From: a virus
Taxonomy: Duplodnaviria > Heunggongvirae > Uroviricota > Caudoviricetes
Length of the DNA stretch: 20,920 bases
Reading direction: 5' to 3' (one strand)
Virus record (IMG/VR): IMGVR_UViG_2585427758_000006
Made by a program: the position numbers and the translations under genes. Of the stretch, positions 1,848 to 20,920 are shown one piece after another. The notes under the pieces are model-generated. The model made no database searches. It was given only the letters and a program-made list of their open reading frames with translations, and was not told the DNA's origin. The number at the start of each line of letters is the position of its first letter. Within the stretch, counting starts at the first letter, position 1.

Positions 1848-2411
1848 GTGCTGACAACGCAAAAACGAAAATTTGCGCTGGCGCTCATGTCCGGGAAAAA
1901 CAAAACAGCGTCAGCCATTGCCGCCGGTTATTCGGCGAAGACAGCCAGGGTTAAAGGCTCGCAGCTGGCAAAAGATCCGGAGGTGCTCGCGTTTATAGCC
2001 CGTAAACAGTGCGAGACGGTGGAGGTGGATGAGGTTCCTGTTTACCGGCAGAAAAAATCAGAGCAGGAGGATAAACCCCGTCGCCGTGAGGCGGCTGCAA
2101 TACCACAGCCGGACGAAACAAATCCGGAGATGCCACCGTCCGCGGTGATGTCTCCTGGTATTGAATATATGGAGGATGGTCTTCCCGATCCGGTGAAAGC
2201 CATGGGGCGGATCCTGGTGGAAAACCTCTGCATTGATCCGAAACTGGCACTGGATGCGGCCTGGCGTCTGGCGCAGTTCACGCACCATAAAAAAGGGGAT
2301 ACCGGGAAAAAATCGGCAAAAGGTGACGCCGCGAAAAAAGCGGCTAACCGTTTTGCGGTGCCACCACCACCCCGCCTGGTGGTGAATAATGATAATGAGG
2401 GCAACGGATGA
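1848..2411 (+). CDS. Terminase small subunit (P27-like family)
   Basis: GTG start at 1848 with GGAGG 5-9 nt upstream; N-terminus MLTTQKRKFALALMSGKNKTASAIAAGYSAKTARVKGSQLAKDPEV is typical of small terminase; stop overlaps the large-subunit start (ATGA). Confidence 0.8.
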   Translation: MLTTQKRKFALALMSGKNKTASAIAAGYSAKTARVKGSQLAKDPEVLAFIARKQCETVEVDEVPVYRQKKSEQEDKPRRREAAAIPQPDETNPEMPPSAVMSPGIEYMEDGLPDPVKAMGRILVENLCIDPKLALDAAWRLAQFTHHKKGDTGKKSAKGDAAKKAANRFAVPPPPRLVVNNDNEGNG

Positions 2412-4069
2412 TACCTGTGTGGAGCACGGCCTGCCCGGACTGGGCAGAGCGCCTGAAAAAGGGGCTGTCGATTATTCCGGCTCCGATTTATCCGGAGCAG
2501 GCCGCACATGCCCTGGCGATTTTTAAACAACTGCGGATTGTGGATGCACCGGGCAGCCCGACGTTCGGGGAGTCCTGCGCACATTGGGTGTTTGACCTGG
2601 TGGCGGCCCTGTTTGGCTCCTACGATGCGCAGACCGGTGTACGCCATATCAAGGAAGTTTTTATCCTTATCCCCAAGAAAAACAGCAAGTCCACGCTGGC
2701 TGCCGGGATCATGATGACGGCGCTGTTACTGAACTGGCGGCAGGCGGCGGGCTACACCATTCTGGCCCCGACCGTGGAGGTGGCGGCTAACGCCTTCAAC
2801 CCTGCCAGGGATATGGTACGACGGGACGATGATCTGGATGACCTCTGTCAGGTGCAGACACATATCCGGACCATCACCCACAGGGTGACGGACACCACCC
2901 TTAAGGTGGTGGCTGCCGATCCGAATACGGTATCCGGTATCAAGTCCGTGGGGACGCTGATTGATGAACTGTGGTTATTTGGCAAGCAGTACAAAGCGGA
3001 GGACATGTTACGTGAAGCCATAGGCGGCCTTGCCTCCCGCCCGGAAGGGTTTGTGGTGTATACGACCACCCAGTCGAATGAGCCGCCAGCCGGGGTGTTC
3101 AGACAGAAACTGCAGTACGCCCGGGATGTCCGTGACGGCAAAATTCATGATCCGCACTTTCTGCCGGTGATATTTGAACACCCTCCTGAAATGGTGGAAA
3201 GCGGGGCTCACCTGCTGATGGAAAACCTCGCCATGGTCAATCCGAATCTCGGCTATTCAGTGGATGAGGCCTTTCTGTACCGGGAGTACCGTAAAGCCCG
3301 GGAAGCCGGTGAAGAGACATTCCGGGGGTTCATGTCAAAACACGCCAATGTGGAAATTGGTCTTGCCCTGCGCTCTGACCGCTGGGCGGGGGCTGATTTC
3401 TGGGAAGAGCAGGGCCGTTGTATCAGCCTGGACGATATCCTGCGTCGTGCTGATGTGGTGACGGTGGGGATTGACGGCGGAGGGCTGGATGATCTGCTGG
3501 GGATGTATGTGATTGGGCGTGACCGGGAGACCCGCGAATGGCTGGGCTGGGGCCATGCCTGGGCGCATGAAACCGCGGTGGTCCGACGGAAGAGCGAGGC
3601 GTCCCGGTTTCAGGATCTTGTTGCCTGTGGAGATATGACCATTGTCCGGCGTGTCGGGGATGACACGGCGGAAGTGGCGGAATATGTGCGTCGCATTCAT
3701 GAGGCTGAGTTACTGGACCATATCGGTATTGACCCGTCAGGGGTGGGGCAGATTCTGGATTCACTGGCGGAAGCCGGGATCCCCGACGGAATTGTGGTGG
3801 GGATAAGCCAGGGCTGGAAACTGGGCGGGGCCATTAAAACCACCGAGCGCAAACTGGCTGAAGGGGTGCTGGTGCATGGTGACCAGCCCCTGATGGCCTG
3901 GTGTGTCGGCAATGCCCGGGTGGAGCCTAAAGGTAACGCCATTCTTATCACCAAACAGGCCAGCGGACGGGGAAAAATTGACCCGCTGATGGCGCTGTTC
4001 AATGCGGTCTCCCTGATGTCCCTTAACCCGGAACCGAAAAAGAAAGAATATGCGGTTTTTTTCATATAA
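2408..4069 (+). CDS. Terminase large subunit
   Basis: 553-aa ORF translationally coupled to the small subunit, in the size and position expected for TerL; the family assignment is by recall of prophage TerL sequences, without a motif check. Confidence 0.9.
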   Translation: MIPVWSTACPDWAERLKKGLSIIPAPIYPEQAAHALAIFKQLRIVDAPGSPTFGESCAHWVFDLVAALFGSYDAQTGVRHIKEVFILIPKKNSKSTLAAGIMMTALLLNWRQAAGYTILAPTVEVAANAFNPARDMVRRDDDLDDLCQVQTHIRTITHRVTDTTLKVVAADPNTVSGIKSVGTLIDELWLFGKQYKAEDMLREAIGGLASRPEGFVVYTTTQSNEPPAGVFRQKLQYARDVRDGKIHDPHFLPVIFEHPPEMVESGAHLLMENLAMVNPNLGYSVDEAFLYREYRKAREAGEETFRGFMSKHANVEIGLALRSDRWAGADFWEEQGRCISLDDILRRADVVTVGIDGGGLDDLLGMYVIGRDRETREWLGWGHAWAHETAVVRRKSEASRFQDLVACGDMTIVRRVGDDTAEVAEYVRRIHEAELLDHIGIDPSGVGQILDSLAEAGIPDGIVVGISQGWKLGGAIKTTERKLAEGVLVHGDQPLMAWCVGNARVEPKGNAILITKQASGRGKIDPLMALFNAVSLMSLNPEPKKKEYAVFFI

Positions 4070-4132: not shown

Positions 4133-6070
4133 GTGACTCTTAAACGGGCCTGTTCCCTGCTGACGGTGAAATCCTTCAGTGAGGATGAACGGGTGATCAC
4201 CGGGATTGCGTCAACGCCTTCTCCGGATCGGGATGGTGACATCCTGGAGCCGGAGGGCGCGGAGTTTGGCAGTGCGATCCCGTTTCTCTGGCAGCATGAC
4301 CATTCCCGCCCGGTGGGGCAGTGTACGGTACGCCGGGTCAGCGAAGGGCTGGAAATCACGGCAACACTGGTGAAGCCCGTACCGGATATGCCGTCGCAAC
4401 TGGCTGCCCGGCTGGATGAGGTCTGGGCGGCCATTAAGACCGGGCTGGTCAGGGGGCTGTCCGTGGGCTTCCGTCCCCATGAATACACCTTTCTGGACGG
4501 AGGCGGACTGCATTTTCTGCGCTGGGAACTGATGGAGGTGTCTGCCGTCACCGTGCCCGCGAATGCGGAATGCACCATCCGGACCATTAAATCTTACGAC
4601 CGCCCGTTTTCTGCCGCGTCCGGCAACCGGAAACCGGTGGTGAAAATCGCATCTTCTGCCGGCGCTGCGGCACAGTCAACAACCGTTTTTCATAAGGAAA
4701 AGACCATAATGAATATTGGCGAACAGATTAAAAGTTTTGAAAACAAGCGTGCAGCGCTGGCAGCCTCCCTTGAGGAGGTCATGACCAAAGCCGCAGAGGA
4801 AGGGCGCACGCTGGATGTGGAGGAGGAAGAGCACTACGACAACACCGCAGCGGAAATCCGTCAGGTGGATGCGCACCTGAAGCGCCTGCGTGAACTGGAA
4901 ACCAGTAAGGCCGCCACGGCACAGCCGGTGAAACAGGCCGGTAACGGGAATGTGGCCGCGGTGGCTTCTGCGCCGGTGATCCGTGTGGAGCAGAAACTGG
5001 ATAAGGGGATTGGCTTCGCCCGCTTTGCCAAATCGCTGGCTGCGGCTAAAGGCGTCCGATCTGAAGCCCTGGAAGTGGCCCGTCGTCAGTATCCGGATGA
5101 CAGTCGTCTGCATCATGTCCTGAAATCGGCAGTGGGCGCGGGGACCACCACGGATCCGCAGTGGGCAGGCAGCCTGTCTGAATATCAGGAATACGCACAG
5201 GACTTTATTGATTACCTGCGTCCGCAGACCATTATCGGGCGATTTGGTCAGGGCGGGATCCCTGCACTTCGTCAGGTGCCGTTCAATATCCGTGTGCACG
5301 CCCAGGTGTCCGGCGGTGCTGCCGGCTGGGTGGGTGAGGGTAAGGCCAGACCCCTGACGAAGTTTGATTTTGAATCCATCACCTTCAGTCATGCGAAAGT
5401 GTCGGCCATTGCGGTACTGACGGAAGAATTGATCCGTTTTTCCAGTCCGGCTGCTGATGCACTGGTCCGTAATGCGCTGGCGGAAGCGGTGGTGGCGCGT
5501 CTGGATACAGACTTTGTGGACCCGAAAAAAGCCGCAGTGGCAGATGTCTCCCCGGCGTCCATCACCCATGATGTGAAGGGCACGGCATCAACCGGTAACC
5601 CGGATGCGGATGCAGAGGCGGCGTTTGGCCAGTTTGTGGCAGCAAACCTGCAGCCCACCGGTGCGGTCTGGCTGATGTCCAGCACCAATGCCCTGGCACT
5701 GTCCATGCGTAAAAATGCGCTGGGTCAGAAGGAATACCCGGACATGACCCTGCTGGGTGGCTCCTTCCAGGGGCTGCCGGTGATTGTCTCCCAGTACGTG
5801 GGTGACCAGCTGGTGCTGGTGAATGCCCCGGATATTTATCTGGCGGATGACGGCGGCGTGGCAGTGGATATGTCCCGCGAGGCATCACTGGAAATGCAGT
5901 CTGAGCCGGGCGGCGACAGTACCACGCCGTCCCCGGTGGAGCTGGTTTCCATGTTCCAGACAGGCAGCGTGGCCATCCGTGCGGAGCGCTGGATCAACTG
6001 GCGTCGTCGCCGTACCGCGGCGGTGGCGGTGATCACCGGAGTGAACTACGGCAGTGCGTCCGGCGGCTGA
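4133..6070 (+). CDS. HK97-family prohead protease fused in frame to major capsid protein
   Basis: GTG start at 4133 with caggagg RBS. N-terminal ~170 aa carry HK97 prohead-protease signatures (...GIASTPSPDRDGDILEP...WQHDHSRPVGQ...GLSVGF...MEVSAVTVPAN); C-terminal ~450 aa resemble an HK97-fold capsid protein with a coiled-coil delta domain. Confidence 0.85.
   Translation: MTLKRACSLLTVKSFSEDERVITGIASTPSPDRDGDILEPEGAEFGSAIPFLWQHDHSRPVGQCTVRRVSEGLEITATLVKPVPDMPSQLAARLDEVWAAIKTGLVRGLSVGFRPHEYTFLDGGGLHFLRWELMEVSAVTVPANAECTIRTIKSYDRPFSAASGNRKPVVKIASSAGAAAQSTTVFHKEKTIMNIGEQIKSFENKRAALAASLEEVMTKAAEEGRTLDVEEEEHYDNTAAEIRQVDAHLKRLRELETSKAATAQPVKQAGNGNVAAVASAPVIRVEQKLDKGIGFARFAKSLAAAKGVRSEALEVARRQYPDDSRLHHVLKSAVGAGTTTDPQWAGSLSEYQEYAQDFIDYLRPQTIIGRFGQGGIPALRQVPFNIRVHAQVSGGAAGWVGEGKARPLTKFDFESITFSHAKVSAIAVLTEELIRFSSPAADALVRNALAEAVVARLDTDFVDPKKAAVADVSPASITHDVKGTASTGNPDADAEAAFGQFVAANLQPTGAVWLMSSTNALALSMRKNALGQKEYPDMTLLGGSFQGLPVIVSQYVGDQLVLVNAPDIYLADDGGVAVDMSREASLEMQSEPGGDSTTPSPVELVSMFQTGSVAIRAERWINWRRRRTAAVAVITGVNYGSASGG
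4709..6070 (+). CDS. Possible internally initiated major capsid protein (delta domain plus capsid), in frame within the protease-capsid ORF
   Basis: In-frame ATG at 4709 preceded by aaggaa at 4694-4699; the product MNIGEQIKSFENKRAALAASLEE... would begin at the start of the coiled-coil region. Analogous to the lambda C/Nu3 in-frame arrangement. Confidence 0.35.
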   Translation: MNIGEQIKSFENKRAALAASLEEVMTKAAEEGRTLDVEEEEHYDNTAAEIRQVDAHLKRLRELETSKAATAQPVKQAGNGNVAAVASAPVIRVEQKLDKGIGFARFAKSLAAAKGVRSEALEVARRQYPDDSRLHHVLKSAVGAGTTTDPQWAGSLSEYQEYAQDFIDYLRPQTIIGRFGQGGIPALRQVPFNIRVHAQVSGGAAGWVGEGKARPLTKFDFESITFSHAKVSAIAVLTEELIRFSSPAADALVRNALAEAVVARLDTDFVDPKKAAVADVSPASITHDVKGTASTGNPDADAEAAFGQFVAANLQPTGAVWLMSSTNALALSMRKNALGQKEYPDMTLLGGSFQGLPVIVSQYVGDQLVLVNAPDIYLADDGGVAVDMSREASLEMQSEPGGDSTTPSPVELVSMFQTGSVAIRAERWINWRRRRTAAVAVITGVNYGSASGG

Positions 6071-16304: not shown

Positions 16305-17048
16305 ATGACACAGACTGAATCAGCGATTCTGGCACATGCCCGGCGGTGTGCGCCTGCGGAGTCGTGCGGCTTCGTGATAAGCACGCCGGAGGGGGAGCGG
16401 TATATCCCTTGTGTGAATATTTCCGCAGAGCCGGAGGCGTATTTTCGTATCGCACCGGAAGACTGGCTGCGGGCAGAGATGCAGGGGGAGATTGTGGCAC
16501 TGGTCCACAGTCATCCCGGTGGGCTGCCCTGGCTGAGCGAGGCTGACCGGCGGCTGCAGATAAAAAGCGCACTGCCCTGGTGGCTGGTCTGCCGGGGTGA
16601 CATTCACAAATTCCGCTGTGTGCCACATCTGACAGGACGGCGCTTTGAGCACGGGGTGACGGACTGTTACACGCTGTTCCGGGATGCTTATCATCTGGCG
16701 GGGACTGAAATGCCGGATTTTCATCGCGAGGATGACTGGTGGCGCAACGGTCAGAACCTTTACCTGGACAATATGGCGGTCACCGGCTTTTACCGGGTGC
16801 CCCTGTCCTCTGCACAGGCGGGCGATATTCTGCTGTGCTGCTTTGGTGCTTCGGTACCGAACCATGCCGCCATTTACTGCGGCAACGGTGAGCTGCTTCA
16901 CCATCTGCCTGAACAACTGAGTAAACGGGAGAGGTATTCCGAAAAATGGCAACGACGAACGCATTCTGTCTGGCGTCACCGCCACTGGCACGCATCTGCC
17001 TTCACGGGGATTTGCAACGATTTGGCCGCCGCCTCAGCCTGTATGTGA
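16305..17048 (+). CDS. K: Tail assembly protein K (MPN/JAB plus NlpC/P60-like domains)
   Basis: ATG at 16305 (MTQTESAILAHARRCAPAESCGFV...HSHPGG...), lambda gpK-like. The track ORF 16044..17048 is the same frame extended upstream into L. 3' end overlaps I by 103 nt. Confidence 0.8.
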   Translation: MTQTESAILAHARRCAPAESCGFVISTPEGERYIPCVNISAEPEAYFRIAPEDWLRAEMQGEIVALVHSHPGGLPWLSEADRRLQIKSALPWWLVCRGDIHKFRCVPHLTGRRFEHGVTDCYTLFRDAYHLAGTEMPDFHREDDWWRNGQNLYLDNMAVTGFYRVPLSSAQAGDILLCCFGASVPNHAAIYCGNGELLHHLPEQLSKRERYSEKWQRRTHSVWRHRHWHASAFTGICNDLAAASACM

Positions 17049-17626
17049 ACACGGCAGCGGAAGCCATTCGCGCCCTGTCGATGCAGATGCCGGGCTTTCG
17101 CCGTCAGATGAACGAAGGCTGGTACCAGATACGTATTGCCGGTGATGACACGGCACCGGAGGCGGTGTATGCCCGTCTTCACGAACAGCTGGGTGAGGGA
17201 ACGGTCATCCACATTGTGCCGCGACTGGCCGGGGCCGGAAAGGGTGGACTGCAGATTGTACTGGGGGCGGCAGCCATCGTGGGCTCTTTCTTCACTGCCG
17301 GAGGCTCGATGGCGTTATGGGGTACAGCCCTGGCAGCCGGCGGTTTTTCTGCCACCACGATGCTGTTTTCACTGGGGGCCAGCATGATACTGGGCGGTGT
17401 GGCCCAGATGCTGGCCCCGAAGGCAAAAACACCGGAGTACAAAAGCACGGATAACGGTAAACAGAACACGTACTTTTCCTCGCTGGATAACATGATTGCC
17501 CAGGGGAACCCGATGCCGGTGCCTTACGGGGAAATGCTGGTTGGCTCCCGCCGTATATCCCAGGACATCAGCACCCGTGATGAAGGCGGGGGCGGAACGG
17601 TCGTGGTTATCGGGCGACAGGGATAA
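16946..17626 (+). CDS. I: Tail assembly protein I
   Basis: 226-aa ORF MATTNAFCLASPPLARICLHGDLQRFGRR...GKQNTYFSSLDNMIAQGN...GEMLVGSRRISQDIST closely resembles lambda gpI along its whole length. Confidence 0.9.
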   Translation: MATTNAFCLASPPLARICLHGDLQRFGRRLSLYVNTAAEAIRALSMQMPGFRRQMNEGWYQIRIAGDDTAPEAVYARLHEQLGEGTVIHIVPRLAGAGKGGLQIVLGAAAIVGSFFTAGGSMALWGTALAAGGFSATTMLFSLGASMILGGVAQMLAPKAKTPEYKSTDNGKQNTYFSSLDNMIAQGNPMPVPYGEMLVGSRRISQDISTRDEGGGGTVVVIGRQG

Positions 17627-17835
17627 AACATAAAAAAATCCCGCAGTGATCGCGGAGCTGTGGGGACAGACAAATGAAGATCAATGTTAAGGAGTTGTTT
17701 TTGTTACTCGGGCAAAAAAACACTAACGCAGCGAAATTATAAGCGCCACAGTCAGTGTGTGAAAATGTGAAGATATTCAGAATTTTTATGCCATTACCGG
17801 TTTTAACCAACAGGATTATCGGTGGGCATGAAAGA

Positions 17836-17865
17836 AAACCCCGGTATCTGCTGATACCGGGGTTT
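17836..17865. terminator. Strong palindromic hairpin in the I-J intergenic insert (bidirectional terminator-like)
   Basis: Perfect 13-bp stem AAACCCCGGTATC (17836-17848) / GATACCGGGGTTT (17853-17865) with 4-nt loop tgct; A-rich before and T-rich after, so it could terminate on either strand. Confidence 0.5.
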
Positions 17866-17968
17866 CTCTTTAGCATGGCAGAAATGTGTTTCATGCTTTT
17901 CGGGCGAAGGATATCCGACTTCTGTACGGAATGGCAAGTGGCGGTTAATTTATTCAGGGGAAGGCTGT

Positions 17969-20920
17969 ATGGGAAAAGGTGGCGGTAAGGCACACACGCC
18001 TCGTGAGGCGAAGGATAATCTCAAATCCACGCAGATGATGAGTGTGATTGATGCGATTGGTGAGGGACCGATAGAAGGTCCGGTGAAGGGACTGCAGAGT
18101 ATTCTGGTGAACAAAACCCCACTGACGGACACGGACGGCAATCCCGTGATACACGGTGTGACGGCGGTCTGGCGCGCCGGGGAGCAGGAGCAGACACCAC
18201 CGGAAGGCTTTGAGTCCTCCGGAGCTGAAACCGGACTGGGCGTGGAAGTGACGAAGGCAAAACCGGTGACGCGCACCATTACGTCCGCGAACATTGACCG
18301 CCTGCGGGTTACCTTCGGGGTGCAGTCACTGGTGCAGACCACGTCAAAGGGCGACCGTAATCCTTCCTCTGTCCGGATTCTGATTCAGTTACAGCGTAAT
18401 GGCCGCTGGGTGACGGAAAAGGACGTCACCATTAACGGCAAGACCACCTCACAGTTCCTGGCCTCGGTGATTCTGGATAATCTGCCTCCCCGGCCCTTTA
18501 ACATCCGGATGGTCAGGGAGACGGCGGACAGCACCACGGACCAGCTGCAGAATAAGACGCTGTGGTCGTCATACACCGAAATCATCGATGTGAAACAGTG
18601 CTACCCGAACACGGCCATTGTGGGGCTGCAGGTGGATGCGGAGCAGTTCGGCGGCCAGCAGATGACGGTGAACTACCATATCCGCGGTCGCATCATCCAG
18701 GTGCCGTCAAACTATGACCCGGAAAAACGCACGTACAGTGGTATCTGGGACGGCAGTCTGAAACCGGCATACAGCAACAACCCGGCCTGGTGCCTGTGGG
18801 ACATGCTGACTCACCCGCGCTACGGCATGGGAAAACGTCTGGGGGCGGCGGATGTGGACAAGTGGGCGCTGTATGCCATCGGGCAGTACTGCGACCAGAC
18901 GGTCCCGGATGGTTTCGGGGGGACCGAGCCGCGGATGACCTTTAATGCGTACCTGGCACAACAGCGTAAGGCGTGGGACGTTCTCAGTGATTTCTGCTCT
19001 GCGATGCGCTGTATGCCGGTATGGAACGGTCAGACGCTGACGTTCGTTCAGGACCGCCCGTCGGATGTGGTGTGGCCGTACACCAACAGCGATGTGGTGG
19101 TGGATGATAACGGCGTGGGATTCCGCTACAGCTTCAGTGCCCTGAAGGACCGGCACACGGCGGTGGAGGTGAATTACACCGACCCGCAGAACGGCTGGCA
19201 GACCTCCACGGAACTGGTGGAAGACCCGGAAGCCATACTGCGCTACGGACGCAACCTGCTGAAGATGGACGCGTTCGGCTGTACCAGCCGCGGTCAGGCC
19301 CACCGTGCCGGACTGTGGGTGATAAAGACCGAACTGCTGGAAACGCAGACGGTGGATTTCACGCTCGGGTCTCAGGGGCTGCGGCACACACCCGGTGACA
19401 TTATTGAAATCTGTGATAATGACTATGCCGGGACCCTGACCGGCGGACGTGTCCTGTCCATTGATGCTGCCACCCGCACCCTGACGCTGGACCGTGAGGT
19501 TACCCTGCCGGAGACAGGTACATCGGCGGTGAACCTGATTAACGGCAGCGGTAAGCCGGTGAGTGTGGACATCACCGCACACCCCGCGCCGGACCGGATA
19601 CAGGTCAGTACCCTGCCTGATGGTGTGGAGACATACGGGGTGTGGGGATTCTCCCTGCCGTCACTGCGCCGTCGCCTGTTCCGCTGTGTCTCCATCCGGG
19701 AAAACACGGACGGCACCTTTGCCATCACGGCGGTGCAGCACGTACCGGAAAAAGAAGCCATCGTGGATAACGGTGCCCGCTTTGAGCCGCAGTCAGGTTC
19801 CCTGAACAGCGTCATCCCACCGGCAGTGCAGCACCTGACGGTGGAGGTGAGCGCAGCTGACGGCCAGTATCTGGCGCAGGCGAAATGGGACACGCCGCGG
19901 GTGGTGAAGGGTGTGCGCTTCAGTCTGCGCCTGACCAGTGGTAAGGGAACGGATGCCAGACTGGTGACCACCGCCATCACCGCAGACACGGAGCACCGTT
20001 TCAGCGGCCTGCCGCTCGGGGAATACACCCTGACGGTGCGGGCGATAAACAGCTATGGCCAGCAGGGTGAACCTGCCACCACCACCTTCCGGATTGCCGC
20101 ACCGGCAGCACCGTCGCGGATTGAGCTGACGCCGGGCTATTTTCAGATAACCGCAACGCCACATCTTGCCGTTTATGACCCGACGGTACAGTTTGAGTTC
20201 TGGTTCTCGGAAAAGCGGATTGCGGATATCAGGCAGGTTGAAACCGCAGCCCGCTATCTTGGCTCGGCGCTGTACTGGATAGCTGCCAGTATCAATATCA
20301 AACCGGGCCATGATTATTATTTTTATATCCGCAGTGTGAATACTGTTGGCAAATCGGCATTCGTGGAGGCTGTCGGTCGGGCGAGCGATGATGCGGAAGG
20401 TTACCTGGATTTTTTCAAAGGAGAAATCGGGAAAACACATCTGGCCCAGGAGCTGTGGACGCAGATTGATAACGGTCAGCTTGCGCCGGACCTGGCTGAA
20501 ATCAGGACGTCCATTACGAATGTCAGCAATGAAATCACGCAGACCGTCAATAAAAAACTGGAAAATCAGAGTGCGGCAATCCAGCAGATACAGAAAGTTC
20601 AGGTTGATACAAATAATAACCTGAACAGCATGTGGGCCGTGAAACTGCAGCAGATGCAGGACGGACGCCTTTATATTGCGGGTATCGGTGCCGGTATTGA
20701 GAATACGCCAGCAGGAATGCAGAGTCAGGTGCTGCTGGCGGCAGACAGGATTGCGATGATTAATCCTGCGAATGGCAACACAAAGCCGATGTTTGTTGGT
20801 CAGGGCGATCAGATATTTATGAATGAAGTGTTCCTGAAATATCTGACGGCTCCCACCATTACCAGCGGCGGTAATCCTCCGGCATTTTCCCTGACACCGG
20901 ACGGGCGGCTGACGGCGAAA
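17969..20920 (+). CDS. J: Tail tip / host specificity protein J, 5' portion (continues beyond window end)
   Basis: ATG at 17969 with RBS aggggaagg; [39 protein letters not shown]... closely resembles lambda gpJ from the first residue. Frame is open to the end of the window, so it is absent from the complete-ORF track. Confidence 0.9.

Follow-up and report, generated by a model that had tools for sequence, protein, structure and literature searches.

Record IMGVR_UViG_2585427758_000006 of IMG/VR is a stretch of 20,920 nucleotides given as one strand, and the whole of it is called the window below. It is the late region (20.9 kb) of a lambda-like prophage, in which the tail assembly gene I and the tail tip gene J are separated by a spacer of 342 bp. 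In the present study, we found that the spacer contains, on the strand opposite to I and J, a gene identifiable as pasB, which encodes the Hfq-dependent small RNA (sRNA) PasB known from enteropathogenic Escherichia coli (EPEC). Very probably, the spacer as a whole is a small, self-contained antisense transcription unit (a moron) between these two late genes, with pasB in its first half (17627-17791) and an independent module in its second half.

Spacer between genes I and J

The initial annotation, made from the letters of the window and a list of its open reading frames (ORFs), described an AT-rich non-coding insert between I and J. The length of the gap (17627-17968) is exact, as measured from the stop codon of I and the ATG of J. 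The spacer is also more AT-rich than its flanks: its GC content is 0.433, compared with 0.601 for I and 0.579 for the part of J in the window (flanks about 0.59 overall), and 0.4% of the 342-bp windows across the 20.9 kb are as AT-rich. The short gap given there for lambda was correct as well (lambda 15445-15504, 60 bp). The term insert holds in the sense that the spacer is extra DNA relative to lambda, but the insertion is not an occasional one, since a gap of at least 235 bp is present in all 84 junctions of close relatives. These relatives are 84 I-J junctions from IMG/VR with an I protein at least 94% identical to that of the window, and loci from public genomes were used in addition. A short gap of the lambda kind was found in none of the 84 junctions, the lengths of which fall into classes of 235-260, 337-343 and 848-851 bp.

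The spacer has several properties of a moron, namely its length (342 bp versus 60 bp in lambda), a deviating GC content (0.43 versus 0.59), its own promoter and terminator, and modular variants. A moron remnant and a small RNA locus were among the options offered initially; the small RNA locus, or moron, was correct, but it was the other strand that had been examined.

Identification of pasB

PasB, short for pathogenicity-associated sRNA B, has been described as an 83-nt sRNA of prophage PP6 in EPEC O127:H6 strain E2348/69, encoded on the minus strand at NC_011601 1466343..1466261 (Pearl Mizrahi et al. 2021, Sci Adv, Table S6; PMC8550237). Its neighbours are E2348C_1436 and E2348C_1437, and the northern probe was AATCCCGCAGTGATCGCGGAGCT (Table S6; PMC8550237). 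We found the sequence of this probe exactly at 17637-17659 of the window. In E2348/69, E2348C_1436 is tail assembly gene I, which ends at 1466255, and E2348C_1437 is gpJ, which starts at 1466496. The alignment of the window with this locus begins at the stop codon of I, reaches about 17795 and has two mismatches, and the two RNAs are identical at 96 of 98 positions. Because of the probe match, the same antisense position between I and J and the 96/98 identity, the minus-strand gene in the spacer can be identified as PasB, which is published and already known. In the public records examined, pasB is unannotated (the feature column reads "none" at every match). AgvB was considered as another identity of the RNA and was rejected; it has no Rfam match here, and AgvB and AsxR sit downstream of PR' according to Tree et al. 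2014.

The signals of a complete gene surround this RNA (Table 1). No promoter could be called with confidence in the initial annotation, and yet a near-consensus sigma-70 promoter, TTCACA-16-TATAAT, is present on the minus strand. The weak hairpin noticed there after a run of seven A does exist, and it corresponds to the terminator of PasB on the minus strand, the A7 run being its U-tail; the terminator scan matched TCCGCGATCACTGCGGG, followed by ATTTTTTTAT, at 17656..17640 of the minus strand. The stop codon of I is 5 nt away from the U7 tail. When the gap was scanned with promoter and terminator consensus sequences, nothing was found on the plus strand. For pasB, the promoter and terminator were called from matches to consensus sequences alone, and the predicted 5' end at 17729 is derived from the -10 hexamer.

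In E2348/69, PasB was validated by northern blot, and its normalised read counts were 482-1082, versus 5-15 for the flanking tail genes (PMC8550237). Deletion of hfq lowered PasB 110-fold (log2 6.8) and 5-fold (log2 2.4) (PMC8550237). The anatomy of the RNA in the window is that of an Hfq-dependent trans-acting sRNA, with a terminator followed by a U-tail, a run of A-R-N triplets and a single-stranded centre.

Table 1. Positions of genes, signals and structures in and around the I-J spacer of the window
Feature	Coordinates	Strand	Remarks
Tail assembly gene I	16946..17626	+	226-aa ORF, stop codon ends at 17626; Pfam Lambda_tail_I, E 1.8e-16
pasB	17632..17729	-	Predicted primary transcript of ~98 nt; published 83-nt form = 17632-17714
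PasB intrinsic terminator	17632..17664	-	7-bp stem CCCGCAG/CUGCGGG, variable loop, U7 tail at 17632-17638; terminator scan
Inferred PasB seed	17671..17696	-	Single-stranded centre AACUCCUUAACAUUGAUCUUCAUUUG with invariant AUCUU box; unpaired in the fold of the E2348/69 allele
22-codon ORF	17674..17742	+	From the ORF list; judged not to be a gene
A-R-N triplet run	17694..17708	-	AGUAACAAAAACAAC; likely Hfq distal-face binding motif
PasB sigma-70 promoter	17763..17736	-	-35 TTCACA (17763..17758), 16-nt spacer, -10 TATAAT (17741..17736); 11/12 consensus matches in scan
CRP-like site	17763..17784	+	AAATGTGA-AGATAT-TCAGAATT (whole: AAATGTGAAGATATTCAGAATT); 2 mismatches to the 22-bp CRP consensus
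Weaker hairpin	17788..17829		AUGCC/AUUACCGGU...AUCGGUGGGCAU; just upstream of the 13-bp hairpin
Module B-long	17792..17968		Nearly invariant mosaic module between pasB and J
Perfect 13-bp stem-loop	17836..17865		Inverted repeat, arms 17836-17848 and 17853-17865
Weak promoter-like site	17937..17908	-	TTGCCA-18-TATCCT; scan, 9/12 matches
Tail tip gene J	17969..20920	+	ATG at 17969; leaves the window at its end

The PasB family

At least five sequence types of the pasB module were distinguished, with 60-71% identity to the RNA of the window. All of the types share the -10 hexamer at a fixed position, the 5' sequence GCGUUA, a U-run, at least three consecutive A-R-N triplets, the invariant AUCUU box, the 7-bp stem CCCGCAG/CUGCGGG and a U6-7 tail. 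The module is complete in 73 of the 84 related junctions, and the remaining 11, here called the sodC type, keep only the body of PasB and its terminator. The -10 hexamer (TATAAT, AATAAT, GATAAT or TATCAT) stands at the same position in all 73 junctions with a complete module. Among 19 distinct variants, the terminator stem is invariant in 18, while the length and sequence of its loop vary. The run of A-R-N triplets, a motif defined by Tree et al. 2014 (PMC4104026), is 3 to 7 triplets long in 19 of 19 variants despite their sequence differences. With the U6-7 tail and the A-R-N triplets in every variant, PasB shows the features of a class II Hfq-dependent sRNA, and is predicted from them to bind both the proximal and the distal face of Hfq. 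A 5' hairpin seen in folds of single PasB sequences was discarded as unsupported; it is absent from the consensus of the 19 variants, and the z-scores of the whole type 1 RNA are about 0.

At the sensitivity of blastn, the PasB family was found in 1809 of 5426 complete E. coli genomes, at 5534 places in all, the median per genome being 2 and the maximum 11. It was also found in 147 phage records, mostly of long-tailed phages converting for Stx1a, Stx2a and Stx2c. When one genome per species was searched with a 24-mer taken from the promoter region of pasB, matches came up only in E. albertii and in two short contigs of unrelated species; this adds little beyond the restriction to Escherichia. 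The two contigs, from Asaia platycodi (L088, 546 bp) and Streptomyces flavalbus (L090, 3.4 kb), are most likely E. coli contamination of those assemblies.

Tree et al. reported EcOnc22, EcOnc23 and EcOnc24 as Hfq peaks, obtained by cross-linking and analysis of cDNA (CRAC), in O157:H7 strain Sakai, with RNAs of ~85 nt on northern blots that are destabilised without hfq (Table S2; PMC4104026). We found that these peaks lie in the I-J gaps of the prophages Sp15 (Stx1), Sp14 and Sp11 (L091 953-1013, L092 and L093), antisense to the tail genes. The coordinates of Tree et al. refer to an older version of the Sakai sequence, and a shift of ~+137 (+135 to +146) was estimated from AsxR, Esr41 and AgvB as located by Rfam; after this estimated shift, the peaks cover the PasB-like body. 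Because one PasB sequence type occupies the I-J gaps of Sp15, Sp14 and Sp11, where the EcOnc peaks fall, PasB and EcOnc22-24 form, as judged by sequence and position, a single family in which the scaffold is conserved and the seed diverges. EcOnc22-24 resemble the PasB of the window in the I-J junction, the antisense orientation, the CRP-like site, the position of the -10 hexamer, the AUCUU box and the terminator stem, whereas they differ from it in the RNA (~71% identity), in the -35 region and in the seed. The link between PasB and EcOnc is stated in neither of the PasB papers (Pearl Mizrahi et al. 2021; Zhu et al. 2026). Table S6 gives homologues in enterohaemorrhagic E. coli (EHEC) for PasA and PasD and none for PasB (PMC8550237), and the word EcOnc is absent from the text of Zhu et al. 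(bioRxiv 10.64898/2026.05.13.724894).

CRP-like site upstream of the promoter

A sequence resembling the binding site of CRP adjoins the promoter of PasB (Table 1). With up to three mismatches allowed, the CRP consensus matched the window at this place only, with 0.05 matches expected by chance. In the window and in the 73 junctions with a complete module, the half-sites TCTGA and TCACA are invariant and the six nucleotides between them are variable. The distance from the site to the -10 hexamer is exactly 24 nt in 73 of 73 junctions, though the 24 nt fall into three unrelated sequence families. We infer that CRP-cyclic AMP (cAMP) may activate PasB through this conserved site. The site is mentioned in neither of the papers on PasB (Pearl Mizrahi et al. 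2021; Zhu et al. 2026). The level of PasB was higher in overnight static LB than in virulence-activating medium, the reverse of the CRP-repressed Spf (PMC8550237), in a comparison of two media that differ in much besides cAMP.

Pairing of PasB with other RNAs

Ligation of interacting RNAs followed by sequencing (RIL-seq) in E2348/69 recorded 37 interactions of PasB, which was always the second RNA of the chimera (PMC8550237). The partners include the 3' end of a gp16-family gene of a Mu-like prophage, the 5' untranslated region (5'UTR) of napF, map and hflX, and further the fabR-yijD junction, the start region of rpoS, bfpB, caiF and the 5'UTR of tolC (PMC8550237). In the seven strongest RIL-seq fragments, we counted 67 6-mers complementary to PasB nt 1-66, compared with 30.6 +/- 8.1 for shuffled PasB (~4.5 standard deviations), and this complementarity was concentrated at nt 34-58 of the RNA. 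With pairing restricted to the seed, napF gave a duplex of 16 bp, CUUCACAUUGAUCUUC against GAAGGUCAAUGUGAAG, which covers the Shine-Dalgarno sequence and the AUG (free energy, dG, -26.2 kcal/mol; z -4.2). The corresponding values were -24.4 (z -4.0) for rpoS and -24.1 (z -2.9) for caiF. Duplexes computed by RNAduplex for the full length of PasB and its targets were inflated and uninformative, and were superseded by the k-mer counts and the seed-restricted duplexes. Because the complementarity to the RIL-seq partners clusters in the centre of the RNA, and in view of the napF duplex, PasB probably pairs through a central seed, often at translation start regions.

The pairing with napF involves PasB nt 39-54 and has one G-U pair (L098, E2348/69); napF is among the strongest RIL-seq partners. 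The top partner by odds ratio is the junction of the gp16-family gene and the next gene in the Mu-like prophage PP9 of E2348/69 (L097 1005-1110). In this fragment, the 3' end of the gp16-family gene overlaps the start of the next gene, and the gene for the Mor activator is just downstream. Such a partner in PP9 suggests cross-talk between prophages.

The mode of action that we propose is as follows. PasB would be produced in the lysogen from its own sigma-70 promoter while the tail genes are silent, and would be bound by Hfq via its U-tail and A-R-N run. Its centre (~17671-17696) would then pair with mRNAs from the host and from other mobile elements, in many cases on ribosome-binding sites or close to them; napF, rpoS, caiF, yijD and the gene of the Mu-like prophage are possible examples. 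The likely outcome would be a changed translation or stability of the paired mRNAs.

The pasB gene of the window carries two single-nucleotide polymorphisms (SNPs) relative to the common type 1 sequence, at 17661 and 17688. The first (G to A in the RNA) is rare and breaks one pair of the conserved 7-bp terminator stem, and the terminator hairpin of the window has -7.3 kcal/mol, via an alternative stem, versus -12.6 for the common allele. The second is at RNA position 42 (27 in the 83-nt form), in the centre of the inferred seed, with A in the window and C in E2348/69. The PasB-2 variant is at this same position (Zhu, Shabalina and Storz 2026, bioRxiv 10.64898/2026.05.13.724894). According to our computations, A at 17688 weakens each of the seed duplexes (napF, rpoS and caiF) by 2.5 to 6.4 kcal/mol. 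Among the matches listed, NZ_CP062871.1 of strain Res13-Lact-PEA14-20 alone is 100% identical to the window over the spacer.

Module B-long and its hairpin

Module B-long, the second half of the spacer, was found in 1446 of 5426 E. coli genomes, and 1442 of its 1451 records show at least 99% identity; no relatives of it were found in any other context. The module assorts independently of pasB, as it is joined to various PasB types, and PasB is also joined to a short module B. A further copy of module B in the window was considered and dropped; the repeat search gave only the hairpin matching itself, and an apparent second place in the phage records was the same palindrome.

The perfect 13-bp hairpin described initially is real, with arms that are 100% complementary and a loop of 4 nt. 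Its RNA folds with -27.1 kcal/mol on the plus strand and -26.0 on the minus strand (z -8.3 and -9.1), and none of 200 shuffled sequences was as stable. The stem can be extended to ~18 bp, and the tails are UUUCUCUUU (plus strand) and UUUUCUUUC (minus strand). Because an A-tract precedes the hairpin and a T-tract follows it, either strand reads as an intrinsic terminator. Judged from its shape alone, the hairpin most likely serves as a terminator in both directions, or as an insulator. Antisense read-through out of J would be kept away from the PasB promoter by it, and sense transcripts without Q-antitermination would be halted before they reach J. The segment 17788-17874 folds with -41.3 kcal/mol (z -7.1).

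At the corresponding place, the short module has a non-homologous hairpin, ACAGGCAYCC...GGRTGCCTGT, then TGTTTTTG on the plus strand, with a compensatory C-G to T-A change, and lambda has CCGCC...GGCGG, then TTTTGTCATTT. A terminator-like hairpin on the plus strand is accordingly found just upstream of J in three unrelated sequences, and the sodC-type junctions are without one. Unlike the other short-module variants, one short module (L077) has extra tandem copies of the 7-nt sequence TCAGACA a few bases upstream of the ribosome-binding site of J.

A second minus-strand sRNA of ~70 nt (17901..17830), ending at the 13-bp hairpin, might be encoded by module B-long in addition to PasB; we consider this doubtful, though it is the best of the alternatives. 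The promoter-like site of Table 1, with its 9 of 12 matches, would stand at its start. The minus-strand fold of 17828-17901 (-31.9 kcal/mol, z -7.3), of typical sRNA shape, combines a 5' hairpin with the A-R-N-like AAAGAGAAA and with a strong terminator that has UUUUCUUUC as its tail. In the natural variant L076, only the minus strand retains the upstream hairpin, as G-U. However, the promoter match is weak, and the strains with Hfq data (E2348/69, and Sakai with Sp11, Sp14 and Sp15) carry the short module instead of B-long. The near-invariance of the module in 1446 genomes, which could speak for such a gene, is equally explained by a recent spread via recombination, and the variation is too small to show covariation. 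The Sakai CRAC peaks EcOnc33 and EcOnc54 (Sp6) were considered as an RNA from B-long and rejected, as they lie near nanS and the lysis genes and between L and K, and not between I and J.

Other insertions and neighbouring genes

The 11 sodC-type junctions (L060 and 10 other IMG/VR loci, with gaps of 848-851 bp) have an insert of ~610 bp at the I-J junction. The insert contains a minus-strand gene for Cu,Zn superoxide dismutase (Pfam Sod_Cu, E 4e-32) with its own terminator hairpin. It substitutes for the PasB promoter and the CRP-like site, and the body and terminator of PasB remain downstream of sodC. In another locus (L027), an element of the insertion sequence (IS) family IS3 with two overlapping transposase ORFs lies at 2370-3640, within module B-long; its insertion point is inside the hairpin that precedes the 13-bp stem-loop.

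Elsewhere, the window contains genes for an HNH endonuclease, the small and large terminase subunits, a prohead protease-capsid fusion and the portal, and further for a tape measure protein of the HK97/lambda type and a K-like JAB/NlpC-P60 protein, in addition to I and J. The homologous loci of gene I carry the annotation "tail assembly protein". In J, the Pfam domains Ig_J, FNIII-A_GpJ, Phage-tail_3 and Phage_Tail_Tip were found, and its homologues are annotated gpJ. At 48-551 is the end of an IS1 transposase gene, and directly after it, 576-818 encodes the C-terminal domain of TonB only. The stretch 48-818 is the most AT-rich of the window and looks as though IS1 had entered a tonB-like moron situated upstream of the genes for HNH and terminase.

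Evaluation of the antisense unit and of its alternatives

Several points weigh against the interpretation of the spacer as an active antisense sRNA unit as described above. The expression, the Hfq dependence and the partners of PasB are carried over from E2348/69 and Sakai, not from the strain of the window, and the stability and targets of the allele in the window may differ from those of E2348/69 PasB, given the SNPs at 17661 and 17688. The published 5' end (= 17714), the coordinate of which was taken from RNA-seq coverage (legend of Fig. S6; PMC8550237), lies 15 nt downstream of the promoter-predicted start; a start near 17729 would be favoured by the TATAAT and the 5' GCGUUA, both of which are conserved. 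Rfam has no model for PasB and gave no match in the window, and at E up to 10 it returned chance matches from terminator shape (SSRC34_2, STnc310 and others), far below the gathering scores. Consensus folding of the 19 variants supported the invariant terminator stem only and found no covarying pair. The centre of the CRP-like site is 32.5 bp upstream of the -10 hexamer, that is, near -44.5 if transcription starts at 17729, compared with canonical activating positions such as -41.5 and -61.5. Furthermore, the site could be conserved simply from its place at a recombination boundary between two mosaic modules. As for the 13-bp hairpin, the terminator scan did not flag it, and module B-long is almost invariant, so that comparison is uninformative on its role as a terminator.

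A different explanation, in line with the control point for J expression proposed initially, is that the spacer acts mainly in cis on the late operon, with its hairpin or hairpins, or the pairing of PasB, setting the amount of J or the processing of the transcript. By construction, PasB is perfectly complementary to the late transcript across the I-J spacer, and lambda, the short module and the long module, which are non-homologous here, each have a hairpin with a T-run just upstream of J. However, late transcription of lambdoid phages is antiterminated by Q and passes through intrinsic terminators. The 11 sodC-type junctions, which lack both the hairpin and the PasB promoter, still keep I and J, and the recorded partners of PasB are trans-encoded RNAs. 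We thus regard a mainly cis-acting spacer as unlikely, and put at the same low level the possibility that PasB has, as a second role, cis-antisense regulation of tail synthesis by pairing with the I-J late mRNA. In that second role, PasB, which is abundant in the lysogen, would have as its target the late mRNA of its own prophage after induction, or that of a superinfecting or co-resident relative with the same module, and pairing would trigger cleavage or block the translation of J.

That the spacer is a decaying moron remnant without present function, as its low GC content and the varied DNA accepted at the junction (sodC, an IS element, long or short modules) might suggest, is very hard to reconcile with the promoter, terminator and Hfq-binding features kept across variants at 60-70% identity and with an RNA that is abundant and bound by Hfq in two pathotypes. 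Equally improbable is that the 22-codon ORF pointed out initially encodes a small protein: the ORF exists, with an ATG and a purine-rich stretch upstream, but it is antisense within PasB, its frame (MKINV) is intact in 18 of the 84 related junctions, the variants of types 2, 3 and 4 lack its ATG (ACG in type 2), and the consensus scan found no plus-strand promoter in the gap.

Comparison with known systems

The antisense unit with PasB can be compared with several known systems. The PasB gene of E2348/69 is the same as that of the window: it is likewise antisense between I and J, 5 nt away from the I stop codon, and its promoter and terminator are the same; unlike the window, which has two SNPs in the RNA and the long module with the 13-bp hairpin, E2348/69 has the short module before J. 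AgvB and AsxR of EHEC prophages are also prophage-encoded, Hfq-binding and antisense-oriented, with a conserved scaffold and variable pairing regions. However, their sequence is another one, they are 51-60 nt long, and they belong to a moron site downstream of PR' whereas PasB is in the tail operon. PasB is not known to act as a sponge of another sRNA. The Rfam models of AgvB and AsxR (RF02702 and RF02703) matched nothing in the window, whether the gathering score or E up to 10 was the threshold, and the same models detected the Sakai controls. At the site downstream of PR', AgvB and AsxR are a convergent pair of sRNAs (PMC4104026).

The OOP RNA of lambda, like PasB, is a small RNA that runs antisense to an mRNA of the phage and has a sigma-70 promoter and an intrinsic terminator. 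The action of OOP is in cis, on the cII mRNA, in contrast to the trans-encoded partners documented for PasB. Finally, the spacer resembles the lambdoid morons of Juhala et al. 2000, in the form in which they are cited in PMC4104026: it lies as additional DNA between conserved genes, brings its own promoter and terminator, deviates in GC content, is missing in lambda and can be exchanged among relatives. It differs from the morons so cited in that its cargo is a non-coding RNA instead of a protein gene, and 11 relatives carry a protein moron, sodC, at the same junction.

Implications

The additions made here to the published description of PasB are modest, namely the link of PasB and EcOnc in one family, the CRP-like site, the seed with its near-perfect pairing to napF, and the insertions of sodC and an IS element at the junction; the picture of how prophage sRNAs work is unchanged by them. 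Should PasB have the cis-antisense role considered above, it would affect the phage yield or act against related phages, and the up to 11 diverged copies per genome would reflect the matching of each prophage with its own antisense RNA. For lambdoid phages, the I-J junction appears as a regular slot for cargo transcribed against the late operon, such as the PasB variants, sodC and the IS element. The main value of the present results is for annotation, as a third of the complete E. coli genomes contain the PasB family, some strains in as many as 11 copies.

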